Shown here one piece after another: positions 48,891 through 63,915 of a stretch of 64,000 nt of DNA (positions within the stretch are counted from its first letter, which is position 1; the number at the start of each line of letters is the position of its first letter). This DNA is from an uncultured Clostridia bacterium (GTDB lineage: Bacteria > Bacillota > Clostridia > TANB77 > CAG-508), in NCBI GenBank assembly GCA_934177485.1, contig CAKPPF010000002.1, positions 75,188-139,187 of the forward strand. The letters are read 5' to 3'. The position numbers were made by a program, and so were the translations under genes. The notes below the pieces were generated by a model. The model was not told where the DNA came from and made no database searches. It saw only the letters and a list, made by a program, of their open reading frames with translations.

Positions 48891-48923
48891 AACCAGCCTA
48901 AACTTGGCACGTTCCTTTTCGAG
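48891..48923 (-). repeat. 33-nt fragment of the tRNA-Leu-associated module (distal island boundary)
   Basis: AACCAGCCTAAACTTGGCACGTTCCTTTTCGAG is identical to the interior of module A (49627-49659). Similarity is lost on both sides. Confidence 0.7.
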
Positions 48924-49222
48924 CCTTTTAAGGGTTTTAATACTTATTGTTTTTTTTGTATTAATTACCATTCTTTAAAATCCCTAAAATCAATGCATTT
49001 TCGTATAATATCTCTGTTAAATAAATAATACTATATTTTAAATTTTTTTTGCAAGATTTTTGCAAAAATATTTGATATTAGTTAGATATTTTTTGTTATA
49101 GCAGATAATCTACTATTGATATTAAACAAATTAATTGATGTATTAATCTATAGAACAAATTTTTGTTTTTTATGATTTACACTTGATTTTTATATAATAA
49201 TCAAGTATACTTCTATTCATAG

Positions 49223-49429
49223 ATGAGAGAAGCAAGATGTGGTGTATCGTATCCTACAGCGAGAGGAGGCGATGCATATTTATTAGAACAAGTTTATTTA
49301 CTTTTTATATACATACTTTTTATTGAACTTGCAATAGTAACCGTTGTAGCTATTGCCTTATTTGTAGCATTGGTTGTTACGATGAGAAAATTAGACAACG
49401 AAAAAAACACATCTCTGTTGGATCGTTAG
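49223..49429 (+). CDS. Candidate small hydrophobic peptide (type I toxin-like); start codon uncertain
   Basis: The ORF ends ...LFIELAIVTVVAIALFVALVVTMRKLDNEKNTSLLDR, a TM helix followed by a charged tail. A TTGATT-17-TATACT promoter lies at 49183-49211. A 30-nt 5' segment (49221-49250) is complementary to 49458-49489. An internal AGGAGG is present, but no in-frame canonical start follows it. Confidence 0.3.
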   Translation: MREARCGVSYPTARGGDAYLLEQVYLLFIYILFIELAIVTVVAIALFVALVVTMRKLDNEKNTSLLDR

Positions 49430-49552
49430 AGATGTATTCTTTATAAAAATACTTTGAACGATACGCCACATTTCTGTGGTATCTCATCTTTCTACAATTA
49501 TTATACTCAAAATATATAAAAAAGTCAATAATTTATAAATTTTTTCATCAAC

Positions 49553-49740
49553 TGGTGGGTCCACTCGCACCCGCGTCACAAAAATAGTCCACCGGACTAT
49601 TTTTACCTGCGTTTAGTCTGGCCTTGAACCAGCCTAAACTTGGCACGTTCCTTTTCGAGTCCCACCTTTTTACTTTATACAAAAAATGTAACCTACAAGG
49701 TTACATTTTCTCTGGTATGATTGTTGTAGTTATCTACAAC
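49553..49740 (-). repeat. tRNA-Leu-associated module, copy A
   Basis: It contains the 113-nt structured core, the hairpin AAAAAATGTAACCTACAAGGTTACATTTT, and a degenerate tRNA 3'-end relic (CTGGTATGATTGTTGTAGTTATCTACAAC). Confidence 0.8.
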
Positions 49741-50089
49741 TCTATTTCTCTTATATTGATACAAACATCAATCAGTTTTATTGTATATACATTATCAAAT
49801 TATTTAAAATTTTTCATGATATTTTTAGTATTAATTGCAATATGGTTTAATTTGTATTTATTATCTTTATACATAAAAATATAGTCATTAAATCAAATGT
49901 ATTTAATTGCCTATCTAATTTTATAATTTCTTTTACTTCTTTAATTGCAGAAATAATATGAAAAAATGCTGGAATAACACCAAGTAAATCCCCTTACAGC
50001 TCCTATATATGCACCAAATACACCTGGAAGCACTGAAGATTTTTCATTTTTTTCTTCTTCCATTTCAACAGATTTTCTATTGTTTCATT

Positions 50090-50950
50090 TTAATTATCAC
50101 ACCAGTAAAGAACCTTTGAAAAGTCTCCTCTTTTTAAATCTTCGTTATTAATAAAGAAAAAGAAAACAACATCAGTAGTAGTACTATATTGAAATAAAAG
50201 GGTATCATATCTTTTTAAATTTTCTCTACCTCTTGGGTCATCTTGCCAAAACAATGGATAGCCTAATAATTTGTCACCATGTGAATCATAAATTGTTTCC
50301 ATAACTTCATCTCTGTATTCTTCTTCAATACTAGACAATTCTTCCTTAATAACATCTTTTTCTATGTCGTTGTAATTATATATTCTGCTTTGCATTATAT
50401 CTGTAGATTTTTTAAAACTATATGCTGTACTTTCATCTATTAGATTTGATTTAGGTAAATCAAGTTTTAAAATTTCTTCTTCCTTTATATCATAATTAAT
50501 TTTTGGATGATAAACTATTCTCCAATTTTTTTGTGAGTCCGGATTATCAAAGTCAAGCCCTAATAAATTATCAGTCCCAATAAAAAATTGTAACATTCCT
50601 TCATTTGGAAATTCTCCACCTTCAAATTTTTCGGTATCAAAGTTAATTTGAGTCATCATAAACAATTTATTACCATTTTCATCTGTTGGATATTCTTCTT
50701 TTAAATCCCAATAAGGTGTTCCTCCGTCTTTGGTTGAAAAAATTGTTGTTTCTTTATCACTTTCAGTTGATACATATGCTGTAATTTCTGTTTTCTTACC
50801 TATTTCTTTGACATAATTTTCTAATTCAACTTTTCTTTCTAGTGAAATTTCTTTATACCTTTTGTTACTTCTTAAATTATTAAGTTTTTTATCTTCTGAA
50901 TTCTCTTTATTTTGTACATTACCATTTTTAAAAAAATCAAATAATCCCAT
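50090..50950 (-). CDS. DUF1963 / YwqG-family protein (immunity-protein-like)
   Basis: I chose the start at ATG 50950, which has a GGAGGA RBS. The sequence LFMMTQINFDTEKFEGGEFPNEGMLQFFIGTDNLLGLDFDNPDSQKNWRIVYHP and the C-terminal LLFQYSTT...VVFFFFINNEDLKRGDF..VLYWCD match the YwqG pattern. Confidence 0.75.
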   Translation of the reverse strand: MGLFDFFKNGNVQNKENSEDKKLNNLRSNKRYKEISLERKVELENYVKEIGKKTEITAYVSTESDKETTIFSTKDGGTPYWDLKEEYPTDENGNKLFMMTQINFDTEKFEGGEFPNEGMLQFFIGTDNLLGLDFDNPDSQKNWRIVYHPKINYDIKEEEILKLDLPKSNLIDESTAYSFKKSTDIMQSRIYNYNDIEKDVIKEELSSIEEEYRDEVMETIYDSHGDKLLGYPLFWQDDPRGRENLKRYDTLLFQYSTTTDVVFFFFINNEDLKRGDFSKVLYWCDN

Positions 50951-51015
50951 TATTAATTCCTCCATATTTTGTTTGTACAAATTATATCATTTATTATTCA
51001 ATATTACTATATTTT

Positions 51016-51180
51016 TTAATTGTATTTTTTTAGTTTTTTATTCTTTTCTTTTTCTAATTGTATCAAACTCTTTTTAGGTGTTGGTAAGTTTTTTGGCATA
51101 GTTCCACTATTTTTTGCAATGATTTCTCTAATATTTTTTTCAAATATTATAATGAGTTTTATTTGCTTCTTTTTCAGTTT
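51016..51180 (-). pseudogene. 3' remnant (about 54 codons) of a DinD-like DNA-damage-inducible protein gene
   Basis: My own translation gives ...NIREIIAKNSGTMPKNLPTPKKSLIQLEKEKNKKLKKYN*, which resembles the DinD C-terminus (..ELGGTMPEELPTPQVSIKQLE). The frame is cut exactly at the edge of module B. Confidence 0.45.
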
Positions 51181-51377
51181 GTACCGATGGTGGGTCCACT
51201 CGCACCCGCGTCACAAAAATAGTCCACCGGACTATTTTTACCTGCGTTTAGTCTGGCCTTGGACCAGCCTAAACTTGGCACGTTCCTTTTCGAGTCCCAC
51301 CTTTTTACTTTATACAAAAAATGTAACCTATAAGGTTACATTTTAATCTGGTACGATTAGTGTAGTAGTTTACAACC
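51181..51377 (-). repeat. tRNA-Leu-associated module, copy B
   Basis: It starts GTACCGATGGTGGGT (a copy of the tRNA 3' end). The core is near-identical to copies A and C. The terminator hairpin is followed by the relic CTGGTACGATTAGTGTAGTAGTTTACAACC. Confidence 0.8.
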
Positions 51378-51528
51378 AATCACCAACAATGAATAGTAAT
51401 ATCAATCACTAATAATAGTATAACATATTTTTTAGGATATGAATCATTTTTTTTGCATATTTAGTATTAATTATTCATATAGTTATTTTGATTCTATTTG
51501 TCCAAAATATTAGCCTATTTTTTACTTT

Positions 51529-52203
51529 TTATATAGCATAAACTTCTTTATTATTTGAGTCGCAAATTCCAATTATCTCATTATTCTTTATAATAGCCAT
51601 TGCTCCAACTGGTAAGTTTAATATTGCTATTCCCATTGGACAAATTTTTAATAGTTCGTACATTTTAATTGTTGTATAATCTTCTGGATTATTTGACTTA
51701 TCTTTGTCATCTAGATTACCCATATACCACCCGGAATCATTATCTTGTTTCTTTACTTGCTTTTCAAAATATAAATTATTTGATTTTAATGCTGTTTTTT
51801 TAACAAATATTGTATCTTGAAATGATATTGCTTCATCTGATATTAAACCTGTCTTTTTTGTTATTAAAAGTTGATTTTTCATAATATCTAGCGACAATGT
51901 TAAATCTTCTGTAAAGTCTTTAAAAGGATCTTCTTTATAATTGACTGCAAATATTTGGAATTCATTATTAATCTCTTTAATTTTATAAAAGTTAAAGCCT
52001 ATTTGTATTATCTTATTATCATCTATAATATTGTATTTATCATCTTGTGTAGTCAATGTTTCTTCAAATAAATTCACTATATCTTCAGTAGTATTATGAT
52101 AAAAAAATACTTTTTTGCCATTTATATTTATTTCTGTTTTATTCATATAACTATTCCTTTCCTTTTTTTCTACATTATTATTTTTCTTATTAAAAAATCC
52201 CAT
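51529..52203 (-). CDS. Hypothetical protein, DUF2185/Imm33-like C-terminal domain (immunity-protein-like)
   Basis: 224 aa with an AAGGAGG RBS. The C-terminal DSGWYMGNLDDKDKSNNPEDY...PVGAMAIIKNNEIIGI recalls the DSGW motif of the DUF2185/Imm33 families. This is recognised by motif only. Confidence 0.4.
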   Translation of the reverse strand: MGFFNKKNNNVEKKERNSYMNKTEININGKKVFFYHNTTEDIVNLFEETLTTQDDKYNIIDDNKIIQIGFNFYKIKEINNEFQIFAVNYKEDPFKDFTEDLTLSLDIMKNQLLITKKTGLISDEAISFQDTIFVKKTALKSNNLYFEKQVKKQDNDSGWYMGNLDDKDKSNNPEDYTTIKMYELLKICPMGIAILNLPVGAMAIIKNNEIIGICDSNNKEVYAI

Positions 52204-52299
52204 AATTGTTCCTCCTTACACATAGTATAACACATGAACCCTTATTTTAATATATATTTTCAATGAATATAAGTGATATTTACAAATATGCTTTACAAT

Positions 52300-53168
52300 T
52301 TATCTATAAAAATCATCTTTTTCTTTTTCACCATTTATTTTGTTATATTCTTTTTTATCTATAATATCATTCATATATAAATCATTAGTTACATCTTGGT
52401 ATTTTTCTTTATCTCCAAATAATCCTTTTACTTTATCACTTATATGGTTTATAATCTTTTCAAATTTTTCTTTCCAATATTCTAACTTTTCTTTTAATTG
52501 CTCTATTTTTTTTTAGTGATGATATTTCTTCTTCTTTTTCATCTAGTTCTGATTTTAAATTTCTTATTTCATTATTTTGATTTTTTATTTCTTTATTAAG
52601 TTCATCTATGTACTTGTGGTTTTCTTCAAAGTCTTCTTTTATTTTATCTACTGATAATGAGTAATTTGTAATCTCTTTAAAGTCATTATTTGATTTATTT
52701 ACTTCTTCTATATAGTCTAATATTAAATCTTTATTTTTATTATATAAAAGTAAGTTCTTATTTGATAGAGGTTGATTTTTTAGATTATTAATAATATCTC
52801 TTATTTCTTCTGATTTGGTATTTAATTTATTTGTTTGATTATTTAGTTTGTTTATTTTTTGTCTTTGTTTATTATAGTTTTTCTTTAATTCATTATAGTC
52901 TTCCATTTGACTTACTCTATAATCAATATTTCTTCCTTTTTGTTTTTCTTTTAATACTGCATTTAAGCCATATACTTTATTAAATGAGTTAATACATCTT
53001 TCTCTCATTTTATCTTGTATTTTAGGTAGATTATCTTTTGTAAATACACTACATTTTCCTACTTGTTTTTTCATACCTGTTTTACAATTTTCTTTTACTG
53101 CAACACCTACTATATGTAGATGTGGTGAAGCCTCATCAAAATGTATGGTTGCGTTAGCTACTTTAAAT
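52300..53168 (-). pseudogene. Mob/Pre (MOBV) plasmid-recombination relaxase, 5'-truncated and frameshifted
   Basis: It retains the HxDExxPHxH motif (IHFDEASPHLHIVGV) but lacks the ~120 N-terminal residues, being cut at module C. The frame breaks at the T9 run at 52506-52514. The alternative frame continues as LKKIEQLKEKLEYWKEKFEKIINHISDKVK... to the stop at 52300. Confidence 0.7.
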
Positions 53169-53339
53169 TCTGGTACCGATGGTGGGACCACTCGCACTCG
53201 CGTCACAAAAATAGTCCACCGGACTATTTTTACCTGCGTTTAGTCTGGCCTTGGACCAGCCTAAACTTGGCACGTTCCTTTTCGAGTCCCACCTTTTTAC
53301 TTTATACAAAAAATGTAACCTACAAGGTTACATTTTCTC
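53169..53339 (-). repeat. tRNA-Leu-associated module, copy C (abuts the intact tRNA)
   Basis: TCTGGTACCGATGGTGGGAC at 53169-53188 is an exact 20-nt direct repeat of 53338-53357 (tRNA 3' end plus flank). The structured core is at 53181-53293, and the tRNA terminator hairpin is at about 53306-53334. Confidence 0.85.
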
Positions 53340-53422
53340 TGGTACCGATGGTGGGACTCGAACCCACATGGTTTCCCGCTGGATTTTGAGTCCAGTGCGT
53401 CTACCAATTCCGCCACATCGGC
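53340..53422 (-). tRNA. tRNA-Leu (anticodon CAA) with encoded CCA
   Basis: The minus strand reads GCCGATGTGGCGGAATTGGTAGACGCACTGGACTCAAAATCCAGCGGGAAACCATGTGGGTTCGAGTCCCACCATCGGTACCA. The cloverleaf has a 7-bp acceptor stem, anticodon stem CTGGA/TCCAG with loop CUCAAAA, a long variable arm and a GTGGG-TTCGAGT-CCCAC T arm. Confidence 0.9.
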
Positions 53423-53498
53423 TTATATAATTATTGGACGCATTTTTTCTGCGTCCATGTTATATTAACATATTTTAATTAAAAAAACAAGTTTATTT

Positions 53499-53921: not shown

Positions 53922-54760
53922 TTATTTTATTATTTCCTTTATTTTATCTAAATTTTCTATAACAGCATTATAACCGTATTTATAACAAGAGTCAAGTTTT
54001 TGAGTATCTAACAGACCTGTTTTATCTGTATATACATTCAAAACAAAATTTGCTTTATTTAAATTTTCTTCCGAGATTTTACTTCCCATTATATCTATTG
54101 TTTTCATTGTCATATCCATTATATTGCTATCTTTAGTTATTTCATCACTATTAAATTTAACCCCGATTACAATATCTGCTCCTTGTTTTTTTACTTCATT
54201 TACTGGAACATTGTCTAAAGCACCACCATCTATAAATGCATGTTCTTTATATTCACATGGGCTAAATACCGCAGAAAAACTACTACTAGCTCGTATTGCT
54301 TTTCCTATGTTTACATCTGTTATATATGTGCTACTATTTTCTGGTGCATTATTTGTAAATATATATTCTTTGCAATCTATCAAATCTACTGTTGGTATTA
54401 CTAATGGCATATTTACATCTTTTATATTGTATATTCCTTGTTTGTTTATAACCTTGTCAAATATCTTCTCAATACTATCTCCTGTTTTTAACCCTTTTAA
54501 TGTTAATTTTTTACTTATTAAATAATTTTTGATTATTGGTTTTGCATTTATTTTTGCTATTTCTTTTGCGTATTTTTTAAATAAATTATATATTTTTTCT
54601 GGTGAATACCCCACAGCATATAATGAAGCTATCATGCTTCCTGAACTTGTTCCGACCGTATTACACTTACTTTTATATTATTATCTTCTAACGCTTTTAA
54701 AACTCCTGCATGTGCAATTCCACGTATTCCACCGCCAGATAAGGCTAACCCAACTTTCAT
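53922..54760 (-). pseudogene. Patatin-like phospholipase, interrupted by a 1-nt frameshift
   Basis: ATG 54760 (AAGGAG RBS) opens MKVGLALSGGGIRGIAHAGVLKALEDNNIKVSVI, which then stops. The GxSxG nucleophile motif (VGTSSGSMIASLYA) continues in another frame into the 53922..54635 ORF. The total length of 839 nt is not a multiple of 3. The break lies near 54658-54663. Confidence 0.7.
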
Positions 54761-54882
54761 ATGTATATAAACTCCTTTTTAGAATTTATATATATTATTC
54801 ACAAAACTAGATTTGTTTAAACAGTTAATTATGTCTTCTTTATGTCCAATTTATAAACAAAGCTACTTCATGTTGCCCTTTG

Positions 54883-56757: not shown

Positions 56758-58560
56758 TTAGTTAACTATTTTCCAGTATTTAAATCCATCCTCAGTTTTT
56801 TGATATTCAAGTTCCACACTAGGATTTGAAATTGTAATAACTGGTCTTAAATATAGTACATACACTCCTCCAGTTATATATAAATTTGGTCTGTCAGATA
56901 AGCTACTTTTTTCATTTGTTCTTAAATATAATGCAAGTATGTTTCTCGATGAAGTTGGGTAGCCAAATAAGTACTCATTTCCTTCCCTGTACTCGTATTT
57001 TTCCATTTTACTTATATTCTTAATTTTAAATAAATCAAATAATCCTAAATCATCAGTCATATATGAATTTGAAGTATCTATTTTTGTTGTACTTGTTATA
57101 ATTTTAGAATTAATCTTTGCAATATTATAGGCATCCCTAGGTGTAATAGTCCTTAATTTAGCATCTGTTCTAGCAATAAATAAATCTTTTCCTTTAATTA
57201 AAGAATTGGATTCACCATATTCGTTAGATTTATTTTTTATCCAATAATACTGTCCTTTATTTTCTCCTGCTTTATTTAATGTATCACTACTATATAAAAA
57301 TTCAATGTTTTCTAAATTATAATATAATCCTGCAGAAGCTTCTACTGAATAGTATTCACTATCTTCCCATTTATTAGATAAGCTGTCTTTATTGACATTT
57401 ATGTAACTTAGAAATTCATTTAACTTCGTCTCATCTTTTTCCCACCAACTTTTACTACTTTCATCACTAGGCATCACACTATAATTTAGATTGCATGGCA
57501 TTCCCGTGCTTATTAATTGTAAATTTGAATATGTTGAATTTTCATCTTCATTAAATTCAATATTTAATATTCTCCATCCATTTATAGAATTATACTCATT
57601 GTTAGTAATCCATTCCTTATATGCTACATCATATTCTATAAAATCGCCAATTTTAACATCGTTTTTTATATTAAGTTCAAATGTTTTTTTGGCTGATTTA
57701 TTCTGTTGATTATCTAGCGAATATGCCTCTATTGTGTATTTTCCACTTTTGTAAAGTTCTATATTTTTAGTATACTCTTGTTCATTAACAATTGCTTCAT
57801 TATTTTTAGTTATACTATACATTATTTTTGAATAGCCTGACCACTTATCTTTTCCACTTGTTATTTCTATATTAACATCTGGTTCATAGTATTCTGTATT
57901 ATCAATTTTATTACCGTCTACTATTTTTATTTCCGGTGCCGTTGGCGGTACATCATCTGATATTTGTTCATCTCTTTTTATGTAATGATATGTAACGTTA
58001 TCCATTTTAATACCTTTAACATAGTATATTGTATGTGATTCTTCATTTATTATATATATGTCTGTATCTACGTTTTGAACTACATTATTACTTTTATATT
58101 TTTCAAAATCTTTTCCATAATTTAACGTTATATTTCCCAATGCTTCTAAATCTATTATATAATATATATCATTATCATTTGCATTTGTAGCTGGTTCTTG
58201 ATTAGTATTGGTTAATCCTTTTATATATTCTTTATAATTAAATACTTCAATATTTGAATCTGAAGTTCTTAGTACTGGTAAACCTTCATACTTTAAATAG
58301 TAGTCTGATACTTTATCTTCCAAAAGTTCTAAATCATTTTTCATTTTTCTATAGTTGTTAATTTCAAATCTATCTAAAGATGTGCTAATTCCCGCAGTTG
58401 TTATTATTAAAAGAACTATTACTGTTACCATTAATGCTACAAGTGTTATCCCTTTGTTTTGGCAAGGTCCAAGACTTGCCCATACTTTCTTTGAATTTTT
58501 GTTCAATTTATGCAAGCATAATCTTTGCCATACCACATGTTCTTTATTACTTTTTGCCAT
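56758..58560 (-). CDS. Large secreted protein with a prepilin-like KG-ITLVAL N-terminal segment after a 36-aa leader
   Basis: 600 aa with an AAGGAAGAAGGA RBS at ATG 58560. The segment QNKG-ITLVALMVTVIVLLIITTAGI parallels the N-terminus of the 24473..26644 protein. The rest is Asn/Tyr/Ile-rich with no recognised domain. Confidence 0.5.
   Translation of the reverse strand: MAKSNKEHVVWQRLCLHKLNKNSKKVWASLGPCQNKGITLVALMVTVIVLLIITTAGISTSLDRFEINNYRKMKNDLELLEDKVSDYYLKYEGLPVLRTSDSNIEVFNYKEYIKGLTNTNQEPATNANDNDIYYIIDLEALGNITLNYGKDFEKYKSNNVVQNVDTDIYIINEESHTIYYVKGIKMDNVTYHYIKRDEQISDDVPPTAPEIKIVDGNKIDNTEYYEPDVNIEITSGKDKWSGYSKIMYSITKNNEAIVNEQEYTKNIELYKSGKYTIEAYSLDNQQNKSAKKTFELNIKNDVKIGDFIEYDVAYKEWITNNEYNSINGWRILNIEFNEDENSTYSNLQLISTGMPCNLNYSVMPSDESSKSWWEKDETKLNEFLSYINVNKDSLSNKWEDSEYYSVEASAGLYYNLENIEFLYSSDTLNKAGENKGQYYWIKNKSNEYGESNSLIKGKDLFIARTDAKLRTITPRDAYNIAKINSKIITSTTKIDTSNSYMTDDLGLFDLFKIKNISKMEKYEYREGNEYLFGYPTSSRNILALYLRTNEKSSLSDRPNLYITGGVYVLYLRPVITISNPSVELEYQKTEDGFKYWKIVN
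58461..58482. repeat. GC-rich palindromic element, copy g, inside the 5' coding region of the 56758..58560 ORF
   Basis: GGCAAGGTCCAAGACTTGCCCA has 6-bp arms GGCAAG/CTTGCC, the shared CAAGAC centre and the same T-rich 5' flank as the other copies. It encodes residues WASLGPCQ of the leader. Confidence 0.5.
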
Positions 58561-61861: not shown

Positions 61862-62419
61862 TTAGTTGTACATGTTCATTGTATGGTCTACACCATTTTT
61901 TATAATGTCTATTACTGCTTCTGCAGCATTGTTTATTGGCTTTTTTAAGATATTATACTCTGCTTCTGGTATCTTTGTTAATATATAATTTAGTAAGTCA
62001 CCTTTAAATTCGGGTTGTCCTATTCCTATTCTAATTCTATAAAAGTTTTGGGTAGAAATTTGTTCAACAACAGATTTCATTCCATTATGAGTTCCTGCAC
62101 TACCTTTTTTTCTAATTTTAATTTTACCAGGTTCAACATCTAAGTCGTCATAAATTACAATTAACTTATTTTCGTCAATTTTATAAAAGTTTTTAAAGTC
62201 TCGCACAGCTTCTCCACTTAAGTTCATATATGTTTGTGGTTTTAATAAAATAACTTTTTCGTTTTCTATTTGACCTATTCCATATAAAGAATTAAATTTT
62301 TTCTTATTTACATTTATATTACATATTTCAGATATTCTATTTATTGCATCAAATCCCATATTATGTCTTGTTTGAGAATACTCTTCTTCTGGATTTCCTA
62401 GTCCTACTATTAAATACAT
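61862..62419 (-). CDS. pth: Peptidyl-tRNA hydrolase
   Basis: MYLIVGLGNPEEEYSQTRHNMGF...GTHNGMKS. Confidence 0.9.
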   Translation of the reverse strand: MYLIVGLGNPEEEYSQTRHNMGFDAINRISEICNINVNKKKFNSLYGIGQIENEKVILLKPQTYMNLSGEAVRDFKNFYKIDENKLIVIYDDLDVEPGKIKIRKKGSAGTHNGMKSVVEQISTQNFYRIRIGIGQPEFKGDLLNYILTKIPEAEYNILKKPINNAAEAVIDIIKNGVDHTMNMYN

Positions 62420-62683: not shown

Positions 62684-63310
62684 TTATAATACATTTTTAT
62701 AGTATTCACATAGCATACATTGTCCATATTTTTTTGTATATTCTATATTATCTTTTAAACTTTTATTATTTAATGTAAATGCTTCTTCTATTTTTCCAGT
62801 TAATATCTTTTCATTAAAATTTTCTTTTAGTCTTGCTAATATAGCATTCATTTTGTCTATAAAAATATTACCTATGGGATTAATCATTTTCCAAGAGCAT
62901 AAGTAAATATTTCCTTCAATATCTAGGAAAAAATATGGATTTTCTTTAGTTTTTTCTGTATTCATACAATTTCCTTTTTTTATATTTTTTTTAATTTTAC
63001 TTAATTGATTTAAAGCTAATTCATAGTCTTCTCTGCTCAATGTTTTTTTAGCTAATTCCACATTATATAATTTTTGTATGTTATCAGTACAAACAAAAGA
63101 ATGTTTTAAATCATCGAAAACTGGTATTCCATCAATTATATTATTATTTTTACTAGCTAAAAAAAACTTTTCAATTATATTTTTATTATTATCCATGTGA
63201 ATACGACATATATAATTCTCATTAAAAGGCATATATTCTATAATATAATAGTTCTTGTCTAAAATTGTTATATAATTACCTTCTTCATTTAGAATAAAAG
63301 GGTTATTCAT
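62684..63310 (-). CDS. Hypothetical protein; the N-terminal half is paralogous to the adjacent DUF402-like protein, with an extra C-terminal domain
   Basis: 208 aa. NYYIIEYMPFNENYICRIHMDNNKN parallels NYFIVEVLPKNENYTMRIYFNEKKE in the neighbouring gene. I do not recognise the C-terminal ~90 aa (ends GQCMLCEYYKNVL). Confidence 0.4.
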   Translation of the reverse strand: MNNPFILNEEGNYITILDKNYYIIEYMPFNENYICRIHMDNNKNIIEKFFLASKNNNIIDGIPVFDDLKHSFVCTDNIQKLYNVELAKKTLSREDYELALNQLSKIKKNIKKGNCMNTEKTKENPYFFLDIEGNIYLCSWKMINPIGNIFIDKMNAILARLKENFNEKILTGKIEEAFTLNNKSLKDNIEYTKKYGQCMLCEYYKNVL

Positions 63311-63408: not shown

Positions 63409-63915
63409 TTATATTAAATATTTCTCCAAATCTAATTGCATATATTTATTGCTATTATTTTTTATACTTTGTAATAAATTTTCCTTAGTTTCATTAGCTA
63501 ACTCAAATTCTTCATTTGTTATTTTGTTTGTATCAAGAGCTTCTTTCAATTCATCTTCATCTAATATTTCAATTTTTTCGTTTTCAATAGTAATATCAGT
63601 ATATAAATCATCATAATATGGAATTTTACTTTCTTCGTCGATGCCATTTTTAAGGCTTATATCAAAATAATATCCCAATCTTTCTTTCTTTTCATTAAAA
63701 TAAATTCTCATTGTATAGTTTTCATTTTTAGGTAACACTTCAACAATGAAATAATTATTATCAATTAAACAAAGTCCAGTTGGAAGTACAAAAGGTTCAT
63801 TAGTATGTATAATCTTTTTTATTGCAAGATAATAATCATTATTATCATAATAAATATCTAATCTGTACTTATCAACATCTCTTAAATATGTTTTACTAAT
63901 CAATTTCTTTCTCAT
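63409..63915 (-). CDS. DUF402-like protein (putative nucleoside di/triphosphatase fold)
   Basis: 168 aa. The segment ...GYYFDISLKNGIDEESKIPYYDDLYTDITIE... fits the DUF402 pattern (Y.D..LD). Called by motif only. Confidence 0.5.
   Translation of the reverse strand: MRKKLISKTYLRDVDKYRLDIYYDNNDYYLAIKKIIHTNEPFVLPTGLCLIDNNYFIVEVLPKNENYTMRIYFNEKKERLGYYFDISLKNGIDEESKIPYYDDLYTDITIENEKIEILDEDELKEALDTNKITNEEFELANETKENLLQSIKNNSNKYMQLDLEKYLI

Follow-up and report, generated by a model that had tools for sequence, protein, structure and literature searches.

Introduction

Transfer RNA (tRNA) genes are the commonest landing sites of genomic islands, and the site is usually viewed as a bare stretch of the tRNA. 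Islands may also accrete in tandem, as in the accretion of cis-mobilizable and integrative and conjugative elements (CIME/ICE). Here we describe a repeated unit of ~125 nucleotides (nt) overall in a 64,000-nt stretch of contig CAKPPF010000002.1 (hereafter the window) from an uncultured Clostridia bacterium of the CAG-508 lineage. The unit always lies behind a tRNA gene and its terminator, folds as a single strand and ends in a copy of the 3' end of the tRNA that it follows. Our tentative reading, to which we assign a probability of roughly 0.45, sees the unit as an attachment module without cargo that mimics tRNA 3' ends, is multiplied in tandem and works in the form of a folded single strand.

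Islands are known from tRNA and transfer-messenger RNA (tmRNA) genes, e.g. through Islander (PMC4383910), tycheposon arrays contain partial tRNAs (bioRxiv 10.1101/2020.12.28.424599), and islands stacked behind one another and separated by tRNA fragments are well known (PMC4383910; bioRxiv 10.1101/2020.12.28.424599). The present locus resembles such accreted islands: an intact tRNA gene is followed by a direct repeat of its 3' end, islands are stacked between the repeats, occupancy varies among strains, and the cargo is of the defence or immunity type. It differs from them in that the repeat lies within a covarying fold of ~113 nt with a 5' end tailored to pairing with the repeat, and in that the module exists free of islands, in tandem with its own terminator and in versions for two tRNAs. 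Literature searches returned no description of such a module. A dedicated covarying fold around the site, a 5' end that pairs with the tRNA copy, the island-free module and its tRNA-specific versions appear to be new.

Recombination sites that are used as folded single strands include attC of integrons and attP of the CTX phage, and the nic site of MOBV relaxases consists of a hairpin, 8 nt and the nick, e.g. in the 'IR1+8' arrangement of the pMV158 oriT. tRNAs are furthermore linked to small RNAs, such as those from the 3' external transcribed spacers of tRNA operons and the tRNA-like domains of bacterial Y RNAs. The unit is compared with these systems below.

Results

The unit is framed by sequences of the preceding tRNA

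The tRNA, its terminator and the units of the array lie in the window as follows.

53340..53422, minus strand: tRNA-Leu(CAA), the anchor gene (ARAGORN; Rfam tRNA model, 62.3 bits).
53308..53336, minus strand: intrinsic-terminator hairpin, 3 nt past the CCA of the tRNA, AAAAUGUAACCUUGUAGGUUACAUUUUUU in the tRNA sense (minus-strand fold of 53160-53340).
53181..53293, minus strand: core of unit C, with helices P1, P2, P3 and P4 in the tRNA sense (covariance-model score 152 bits).
53165..53180, minus strand: 3' tail of unit C, AUCGGUACCAGA in the tRNA sense, attachment-site copy (BLAST match to tRNA positions 66-83).
51316..51344, minus strand: terminator copy of unit B (repeat finder).
51179..51301, minus strand: unit B, composed of the core (51189-51301) and tail (covariance-model score 148 bits).
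49681-49709, minus strand: terminator copy of unit A (repeat finder).
49544..49666, minus strand: unit A, with its core at 49554-49666 (covariance-model score 140 bits).
48891..48925, minus strand: truncated last unit, core positions ~8-42 in the tRNA sense, at the distal end of the array beside the purB promoter.

Reading of the window sequence places the start of GGTGGGACCACTCG at 53181 and the end of CGAGTCCCACC at 53293. Between them lie a perfect 11-3-11 hairpin, AAAAATAGTCC-ACC-GGACTATTTTT (53207-53231), and an 11-7-11 hairpin with one mismatch, GTTTAGTCTGG-CCTTGGA-CCAGCCTAAAC (53238-53266). A repeat finder detected three copies of 183 nt, starting at 49527, 51162 and 53154, and a fragment of 33 nt at 48891, while searches with diagnostic sub-patterns of the module yielded 4 and 3 matches, with 0 expected by chance. 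A preliminary description of the window, made from the letters without database searches, had reported a near-invariant 113-nt core in three copies. Its coordinates and its near-invariance are confirmed: the cores differ at one (A versus B), two (B versus C) and three positions (A versus C), and GGGTCC/GGGACC and CCTTGAA/CCTTGGA are among these differences. The fragment at 48891 begins in the loop of the second hairpin, as had also been noticed; it represents the truncated last unit of the array, is common to all strains of the species and marks the point where the array meets the purB flank. Three things had escaped that first reading, namely the tRNA-Leu(CAA) gene on the minus strand, the 18-nt copy of its end, and the true nature of the island ends that we designate psiT.

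The tRNA-Leu(CAA) gene is preceded by a sigma-70-like promoter (53457..53430, minus strand), has the T arm GTGGG TTCGAGT CCCAC and ends in CATCGGTACCA with the CCA encoded. In the tRNA sense, the tRNA and its CCA are followed by GAG, the terminator hairpin (53336..53308), an A-rich spacer of 14 nt (53294-53307), the core (53293..53181) and AUCGGUACCAGA. The 3' strand of the closing helix P1 together with the tail (GTCCCACCATCGGTACCA) exactly repeats the final 18 nt of tRNA-Leu(CAA); on the plus strand, the bases to the left of each core (TGGTACCGAT + GGTGGGAC) correspondingly form the exact reverse complement of these 18 nt. The 5' end of the core (GGTGGGACTCGAA) is in turn the exact reverse complement of the T loop and the 3' strand of the T stem (TTCGAGTCCCACC). 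As the core ends copy and complement the tRNA in this way, the closing stem reproduces the T stem and rests on a duplicate of the tRNA 3' end. In general terms, the final 18-19 nt of a unit comprise the end of the T loop, the 3' strands of T stem and acceptor stem and the CCA, and the first 11-13 nt complement the T loop and the 3' strand of the T stem. When the tRNA-sense strand is single, the unit ends therefore close P1 in imitation of the T stem and are followed by the same tail of 8-10 nt as in the tRNA. The spacing from the foot of the hairpin to the junction is 8-9 nt in tRNA, unit and psiT alike. The unit shares just positions 66-83 of the 83-nt tRNA and contains no cloverleaf, ARAGORN and the Rfam tRNA model detecting only 53340-53422.

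The fold covaries and belongs to the tRNA-sense strand

Both strands of the module fold well beyond shuffled sequences (minus strand, z = -6.0; plus strand, z = -5.5), and both folds contain the closing stem, i.e. the closed two-hairpin structure of the preliminary description is real. In the tRNA sense, P1 consists of GGUGGGAC / GUCCCACC and is extended by UCG/CGA across a GUG bulge. The long hairpin at 53238-53266 forms P2, together with a UGC/GCA extension; a hairpin of A5-stem-U5 form at 53207-53231 represents P3, and a small P4 completes the fold. RNAalifold, run on 13 distinct copies, returned a consensus with P1, P2 including its basal extension, the A5-stem-U5 hairpin P3 and the small P4, and the unpaired joints, CGAAAAGGA..CC.AG and GACGCG, are strongly conserved.

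Pairing was quantified in an alignment of 23 copies, which is derived from and fitted to the covariance model and hence favours the structure. In this alignment, standard pairs occupy 95.7% of the cells and both sides have changed at 15 of the 39 pairs; none of 500 shuffles attained the observed pairing values, and controls with slid partners were 33-43% paired. Independent support for a conserved fold comes from a divergent copy (L022), which is just 64% identical and keeps every helix with different sequence. The arms of P2 vary by compensation (UUUAG/CUAAA, UUCAG/CUGAA, UUUCG/CGAAA) and have been exchanged, completely in the divergent Leu copy and in part in copies behind tRNA-Phe; the loop that they enclose measures ~4 to 7 nt depending on the copy. 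That the stems might change by compensation had been suggested as a check, which these substitutions bear out.

The two strands differ in what they tolerate. G-U pairs fill 39 cells when read in the tRNA sense versus 1 on the opposite strand, mismatches fill 15 cells in the tRNA sense versus 53 on the plus strand, where many pairs turn into C-A, and transitions at several pairs preserve pairing solely in the tRNA sense. These one-sided wobble pairs and strand-limited transitions assign the structure to the tRNA-sense strand, to which it belongs either as RNA or as single-stranded DNA.

These data bear directly on the model of the preliminary description, according to which the second hairpin is the core site of a tyrosine recombinase or, alternatively, the module encodes a plus-strand RNA ended by the closing stem and TTTTT. 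The 11-7-11 geometry is indeed present in the window copy, the fragment at 48891 starts in the 7-nt spacer, and truncated copies in L022 and L019 break in or beside hairpin loops. However, a core site in this hairpin fails because its arms are not conserved, being compensated or replaced (L022, Phe) around a loop of variable length, and because intact junctions lie in the tail and truncation points vary from copy to copy; moreover, no recombinase gene is found nearby (within 10 kb). As for the RNA, a structured nucleic acid was the right class, but its assignment to the plus strand is contradicted by the excess of C-A mismatches and by the G-U count, and the T run is absent from orthologs, which carry CCCACTTTTGTG, CCCACCGTTTAATG, CCCACATTTTAG, CCCACCTGTTTATT and CCACCTTCCCAT instead. 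We consider this model highly improbable in either form.

A small non-coding RNA gene in the tRNA sense, read through from the strong tRNA promoter or processed from the tRNA transcript, is a different matter. Its 5' end would pair with T loop and T stem of the cognate tRNA, its 3' end would mimic the tRNA, and insertions into the tail would be a side effect of this mimicry. The G-U pairs and pair-keeping transitions confined to the tRNA sense fit such an RNA, as do stems that change by compensation while the unpaired joints stay conserved, the co-orientation of unit and tRNA, and the perfect complementarity of the first 11-13 nt to the cognate tRNA in Leu and Phe units alike. A terminator follows intact units and retains its stem by a double change in one copy (L016), and the A5-stem-U5 hairpin P3 could itself end an RNA of ~88 nt. 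Several observations speak against it. A consensus scan in three species revealed no promoter-like site before the unit on either strand, and the unit is separated from the terminator before it by a non-conserved spacer of 7 to 17 nt. Every unit is flanked by terminators on both sides. The copy number ranges from 0 to 3, and strains of one type (L031; at least four contigs) possess only a 42-nt stub. The 10-nt tail beyond P1 is identical to the tRNA through CCA-GA, which is explained more simply by an attachment-site repeat. Finally, Rfam 15 matched only the true tRNA in the window; even at E<=10 the unit had no match and just chance microRNA-like matches to the terminator appeared, and in related loci only tRNA was found. 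On balance we regard an RNA gene, with which the one-sided wobble pairs, the conserved joints and the retained terminator behind the unit agree no less than with a DNA site, as the main rival of the attachment module, possible though rather unlikely.

Homologous units occur behind tRNA-Leu and tRNA-Phe in human-gut lineages

Using an invariant 20-mer, we searched species-representative genomes and metagenomes for homologues. The scans identified 24 loci, all in human-gut assemblies of 'uncultured Clostridium sp.', so that homologous cores do exist outside the window locus, for which a covariance-model scan of metagenomes had been proposed as a check. The loci represent ~10 sequence variants, each directly behind tRNA-Leu(CAA) and a terminator hairpin. 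At the place of the terminator every ortholog has a hairpin and a U run of differing sequence, the spacers differ as well, and so do the flanking genes, which are mraZ (L001, L002), clpC (L017) or purB/tsaE (window). Despite the diverged terminators, the cores are 88-98% identical over these ~10 lineages. Since several loci lack any island, the module is not merely the border of the islands in the window. The tail matches the end of the host's own tRNA in each case, with five Leu variants: ATCGGTACCA, GTCGGGACCA, ATCAGCACCA, AACGGTACCA and ACCGGCACCA.

The covariance model located a paralog behind tRNA-Phe(GAA) in contigs of the same species. Its interior is homologous (72-74% identity), while its ends are GTGGAATCGAA ... 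ATTCCACCTCGGACCACCA, with P1 formed by GTGGAAT / ATTCCAC. The 5' end complements T loop and T stem of tRNA-Phe, and the 3' end equals the last 19 nt of tRNA-Phe. The unit is followed by the terminator repeat and the truncated beginning of a further unit, and in one strain (L054) two identical full Phe units stand in tandem. The divergent Leu unit of L022 has joints nearer to the Phe type and Leu ends. Together with the Phe ends, this mixed unit indicates that ends and interior are separable modules, and the ends are fitted to whichever tRNA precedes. A broader model (R2) detected no third tRNA type in 415 kb of related loci.

The tRNA-Phe locus also occurs near the window. In island-free strains, a tRNA-Val/Asp/Phe cluster and a Phe-type unit lie directly before pth (window 61862-62419). 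The window strain has its tRNA-Phe unit just past the end of the window, and an open reading frame (ORF) of 208 amino acids together with a gene for a DUF402 protein (62684-63310 and 63409-63915, both minus strand) constitutes an island in this second locus, as seen by comparison of L048 (3573-6001) with L049 (5596-6001).

Could the unit be a functionless scar, i.e. what is left of an old integrated element that separated the tRNA from a displaced piece of its 3' end, homogenised within a genome by gene conversion and unequal crossing-over? Direct repeats of the tRNA 3' end bound the unit, as they classically do after integration into a tRNA gene; the copies within one genome are near-identical, and some strains dispense with the unit. 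A scar is difficult to square with 88-98% conservation over lineages that differ in terminators and flanking genes, with compensatory changes at 15 pairs with retention of the fold in the 64%-identical copy and in the Phe paralog, or with a P1 that was rebuilt from a different tRNA in the Phe units. We therefore judge this explanation very unlikely. The preliminary description had likewise considered selection on the core, and it is this conservation, together with the compensatory stem changes, that upholds it. The argument offered at the time, a contrast between the conserved core and adjacent 'pseudo-tRNA ends' of copies A and B that had decayed from the tRNA, is unsupported: these ends are a different conserved sequence, the end of a mobile-element family that recurs in other species and in viral contigs.

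Unit number varies among strains of the species

Strains were compared through contigs that encode the exact TsaE of the window, over the interval from tsaE to purB. The following arrangements were found.

L031 type (at least four contigs): terminator, then a 42-nt unit stub.
L032 and L024: unit, tail, terminator and stub, with no island in between.
L027 and L028: one unit and a 630-nt segment.
L026 and L029: two units and the DUF1963 island.
Window, L025 and L030: three units and both islands.

The window and L026 differ by one block that was either gained by the window or lost by L026. It extends from just past the CCA of the tRNA to the CCA at the distal end of the first island and comprises terminator, unit C, tail, island 1 and psiT. 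The unit farthest from the tRNA invariably lacks part of its 3' side, with a truncation point that varies by species (window, L002, L016, L019, Phe locus of L026), and this is the side where foreign DNA joins. In L022, the divergent unit follows directly behind a standard unit and carries its own, different terminator, which excludes local duplication as its origin.

An ORF for a strongly hydrophobic peptide of 68 amino acids (49223-49429, plus strand) lies within the 630-nt segment that separates unit A from the truncated unit. It is preceded by good -35 and -10 elements (TTTACA ... TATAAT), lies on the strand opposite to everything else there, and could be a small membrane toxin or holin-like gene.

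Islands join at the unit tail

In the tRNA sense, unit C is followed by a Mob_Pre gene without its N-terminus, an Imm33-like gene, unit B, a DUF1963 gene, unit A, the 630-nt segment, the truncated unit and purB. The islands and their ends are located as follows.

51436..53164, minus strand: cargo of island 1, with an Imm33-like gene (51529-52203) and a Mob_Pre relaxase remnant lacking the N-terminus (52460-53161) (Pfam).
51348..51435, minus strand: psiT at the distal end of island 1, a hairpin (GUUGUAAAC..) + AAUCGUACCA, joined to the GAUU-terminator.
49801..51178, minus strand: cargo of island 2, with a DUF1963 gene (50090-50980) (Pfam).
49713-49800, minus strand: second copy of psiT at the distal end of island 2, GUUGUAG AUAA CUACAAC AAUCAUACCA.

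Island 1 is missing in L026, L029, L027, L028 and L031, and island 2 in L027, L028 and L031. Four islands in three species (islands 1 and 2 of the window, L011/L015 and L022) share a conserved end of ~90 nt. The last part of this psiT end consists of a 7-bp hairpin, ~8 nt and ACCA, and is joined to GA-terminator-unit. It is conserved in L011, L015 and L022 and in the viral contigs L059, L060, L062 and L064 from IMG/VR.

The insertion junctions of the islands map to the 3' tail of the units, outside the closing stem. Unit B meets island 2 within its tRNA-like tail at AUCGGUAC|AAAC (GGTAC|AAAC), and the junction in L022, GGCAC|AAAC, is of the same kind; the tail of unit A is replaced immediately past P1 (CCCACC|AGUUGAUG). 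As in an attachment-site repeat, the 18-19-nt repeats covary with the host tRNA (five Leu variants, Phe), and the islands join at GGYAC|. Both islands and prophage remnants occupy the tail sites, and the cargoes include Imm33-like and DUF1963 genes, an ankyrin-repeat gene, an OLD-family/UvrD pair and phage structural genes.

One viral contig (L062, IMGVR_UViG_3300045988_170315) links these ends to tRNA genes. It has the order psiT-CACCGGCACCA-ATAACGAATCTGTTCGAAC-terminator-gene, with psiT joined to an arm designated P'. The P' arm is homologous to the sequence directly past tRNA-Thr(CGT) and tRNA-Leu(TAG) in L035/L036 and also to the sequence past the tail of the divergent unit in L022 (CACCGGCAC|AAACGACGCATTTGTTCGAAC). 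Judging from these homologies, the junction is a candidate for attP-like joined ends that would have recombined with a tRNA 3' end or a unit tail within GGYAC(CA). The occurrence of the same arm past tRNAs and past a unit tail indicates that the tail is used like the 3' end of a tRNA. None of the psiT-bearing viral contigs contains a unit, which argues that units are targets rather than parts of these elements.

Further observations concern the same family of elements. L035 (9447-10933) and L036 (3525-5005) share an island end composed of CTAGTGAATCTATTCGAACTATTCGAAC, a terminator, a gene for 90 amino acids and a Mob_Pre-like gene for 310 amino acids. This end follows the GCACCA of tRNA-Leu(TAG) and tRNA-Thr(CGT) in other species, where no unit is present; use of two different tRNAs indicates that the family targets tRNA 3' ends generally. 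In L033 (2036-2130), a tRNA-Leu(CAA) of the same species ends in CATCAGCACCA, the typical acceptor end of another lineage, which causes a C-A mismatch in the acceptor stem, and the sequence after the tRNA (ATGACATATT...) resembles the arm beside psiT in viral contig L060. The foreign acceptor end and the L060-like arm indicate that an element has inserted into the genuine tRNA gene, the 3' end of which it exchanged. In L007 (4283-4298), a second short GCACCAGA motif lies in a small hairpin (TCGTCTGGTGCGACGA) just past the unit tail and may be the relic of another attachment-site copy. The island at a tRNA-Leu unit site in L015 (136-2608) contains, in this order, genes for an OLD-family ATPase/nuclease-like protein and a UvrD-like helicase, which form a Gabija-like defence pair, and L011, of the same species, has phage structural genes at the same site.

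The Mob_Pre remnant begins directly past the tail of unit C in the same orientation and starts at profile position 117 of 196. It (52460-53161) aligns from nt 1821 with the gene for a full-length Mob of 404 amino acids (1482-2696) on L039, a plasmid-like contig of 5.8 kb. The relatives in L035-L038 are N-terminally different from roughly the same region, and the 310-amino-acid form may thus be a recurrent shortened protein rather than the product of random decay. We considered whether the relaxase is part of the unit and rejected this: full-length Mob_Pre relatives are encoded on the plasmid-like contig L039 and in islands without units behind other tRNAs (L035-L038), which identifies the relaxase as cargo or neighbour.

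Discussion

The unit as a possible folded attachment site

Taken together, the data favour a tRNA-3'-end-mimicking attachment module. This reading is based on the placement of the unit after the terminator, the cognate ends at two tRNAs, the fold on one strand, the variation in copy number, the insertions in the tail and the lack of a promoter or partner gene. According to this scenario, the unit would duplicate the attachment site at the 3' end of the tRNA. Integrative elements with their own 'hairpin + ~8 nt + ACCA' end (psiT) would recombine with the unit tail, and islands would consequently pile up behind units rather than inside the tRNA. Units would travel with their terminator as cargo-less cassettes (terminator-unit-tail), and their gain and loss in tandem would build the array of terminator-unit-island-terminator-unit. 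By analogy with integron attC or a relaxase nic site, the fold would matter since the site is probably read as folded single-stranded DNA and not as RNA. Both the mobilisation of units in trans and the identity of the enzyme we infer.

A number of observations weigh against the attachment module. Between the repeats lie just the terminator and ~113 nt, no autonomous parent element with a unit was found in the plasmid, phage or viral collections, and no recombinase or integrase gene is present in the island remnants or within 10 kb in the flanks of same-species contigs. Units were detected neither in plasmid and phage collections by BLAST with the module nor in IMG/VR, where scans with core patterns gave nothing or chance matches that the covariance model rejected; the prophage remnant of L011 had no BLAST match to phages either. 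The conserved unpaired joints (CGAAAAGGA..., GACGCG) and the one-sided G-U pairs would also be expected of an RNA gene, and the second terminator beyond the tail in L016, with its compensatory double change, fits a transcription unit. An integrase that binds double-stranded DNA would need the 18-nt tail alone, and neither P1 nor the interior. Of all junctions, that in L022 alone corresponds to a known joined-ends sequence, and the islands of the window have proximal ends that are decayed or deleted. The array could also have grown purely by unequal crossing-over.

Comparison with integrons, relaxase sites and tRNA-linked RNAs

Like integron attC and CTX attP, the unit is strand-specific, its ends pair into a helix around a variable interior, and its structure is more conserved than its sequence. 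As in integron arrays, one site stands between successive cassettes and cassettes without genes exist. Unlike in attC, the unit ends are GGTGGGAC / GTCCCACC (Leu) or GTGGAAT / ATTCCAC (Phe) and lack a GTTRRRY/RYYYAAC box, the junctions are placed 8-9 nt 3' of the closing helix instead of within it, unpaired sequence of the interior is strongly conserved, and the ends derive from a tRNA. Unlike in integrons, the array is headed by a tRNA gene, attI and Pc are missing, and no integrase gene (intI) lies in the 10-kb flanks of same-species contigs.

With the nic site of MOBV relaxases the unit shares the succession of a stem, a single strand of ~8 nt and a junction, which recurs in the T arm, the unit and psiT, and a Mob_Pre remnant adjoins unit C. 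It differs from that system in that the adjacent Mob is N-terminally truncated and in that the unit is unrelated in sequence to the candidate oriT in front of the intact mob gene of L039.

A bolder proposal that draws on both comparisons is that these loci are cassette arrays at tRNA 3' ends, integron-like and devoid of the integron integrase. Their sites would be folded single-stranded mimics of the T arm and acceptor tail (tRNA, unit and psiT, which have 'stem + ~8 nt + ACCA' in common), served in trans by an enzyme for hairpin-plus-tail substrates, such as a Mob_Pre-type relaxase or another single-strand recombinase, and the unit would be a self-propagating empty cassette. In a variant of this idea, the unit would be transcribed, and its tRNA-matching 5' and 3' ends would guide recombination to the cognate tRNA gene. 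We regard the proposal as unlikely.

The unit resembles tRNA-linked small RNAs in its position 3' of a tRNA, its co-orientation, its structure and its tRNA-like sequence. Unlike these RNAs, it lies past the tRNA terminator, copies the last 18-19 nt only, varies in copy number and belongs to no Rfam family.

Several other identities were rejected. A miniature inverted-repeat transposable element does not fit, given inverted ends that are tRNA-derived and differ between Leu and Phe, no short target duplication, and copies behind two tRNA genes only. An IS110 bridge RNA or an omega RNA of TnpB/IscB was dismissed as no such gene lies beside any of more than 30 units. For a piece of tmRNA, a T-box, a retron non-coding RNA and the single-strand origin (sso) of a rolling-circle plasmid, the partner gene or a conserved signature is missing. 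Mimicry of an anticodon arm is not supported either, the P2 loop having CAA in some copies and UGG or ACCA in others.

Other observations in the window

Two further genes of the window deserve mention. A patatin-like phospholipase (53922-54810, minus strand) is called as two pieces of 42 and 237 amino acids in all strains of the species, which suggests a conserved frameshift, an internal start or a pseudogene. A protein of 600 amino acids with a prepilin-like N-terminus (56758-58560, minus strand) varies among strains, with lengths of 600, 601 or 620 amino acids or a split into 332 + 249 amino acids.

Significance

A conserved, folded module that copies a tRNA end marks the places where defence and immunity cargo gathers in uncultured bacteria of the human gut. 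If the unit is indeed a recombination site used as a folded strand, it would represent a new class of structured attachment site and would explain how islands can be stacked without damage to an essential tRNA. If it is transcribed as an RNA instead, it would found a new family of tRNA-mimicking small RNAs. Under either reading, the covariance models R1 and R2 provide a simple marker for island hot spots in metagenomes.

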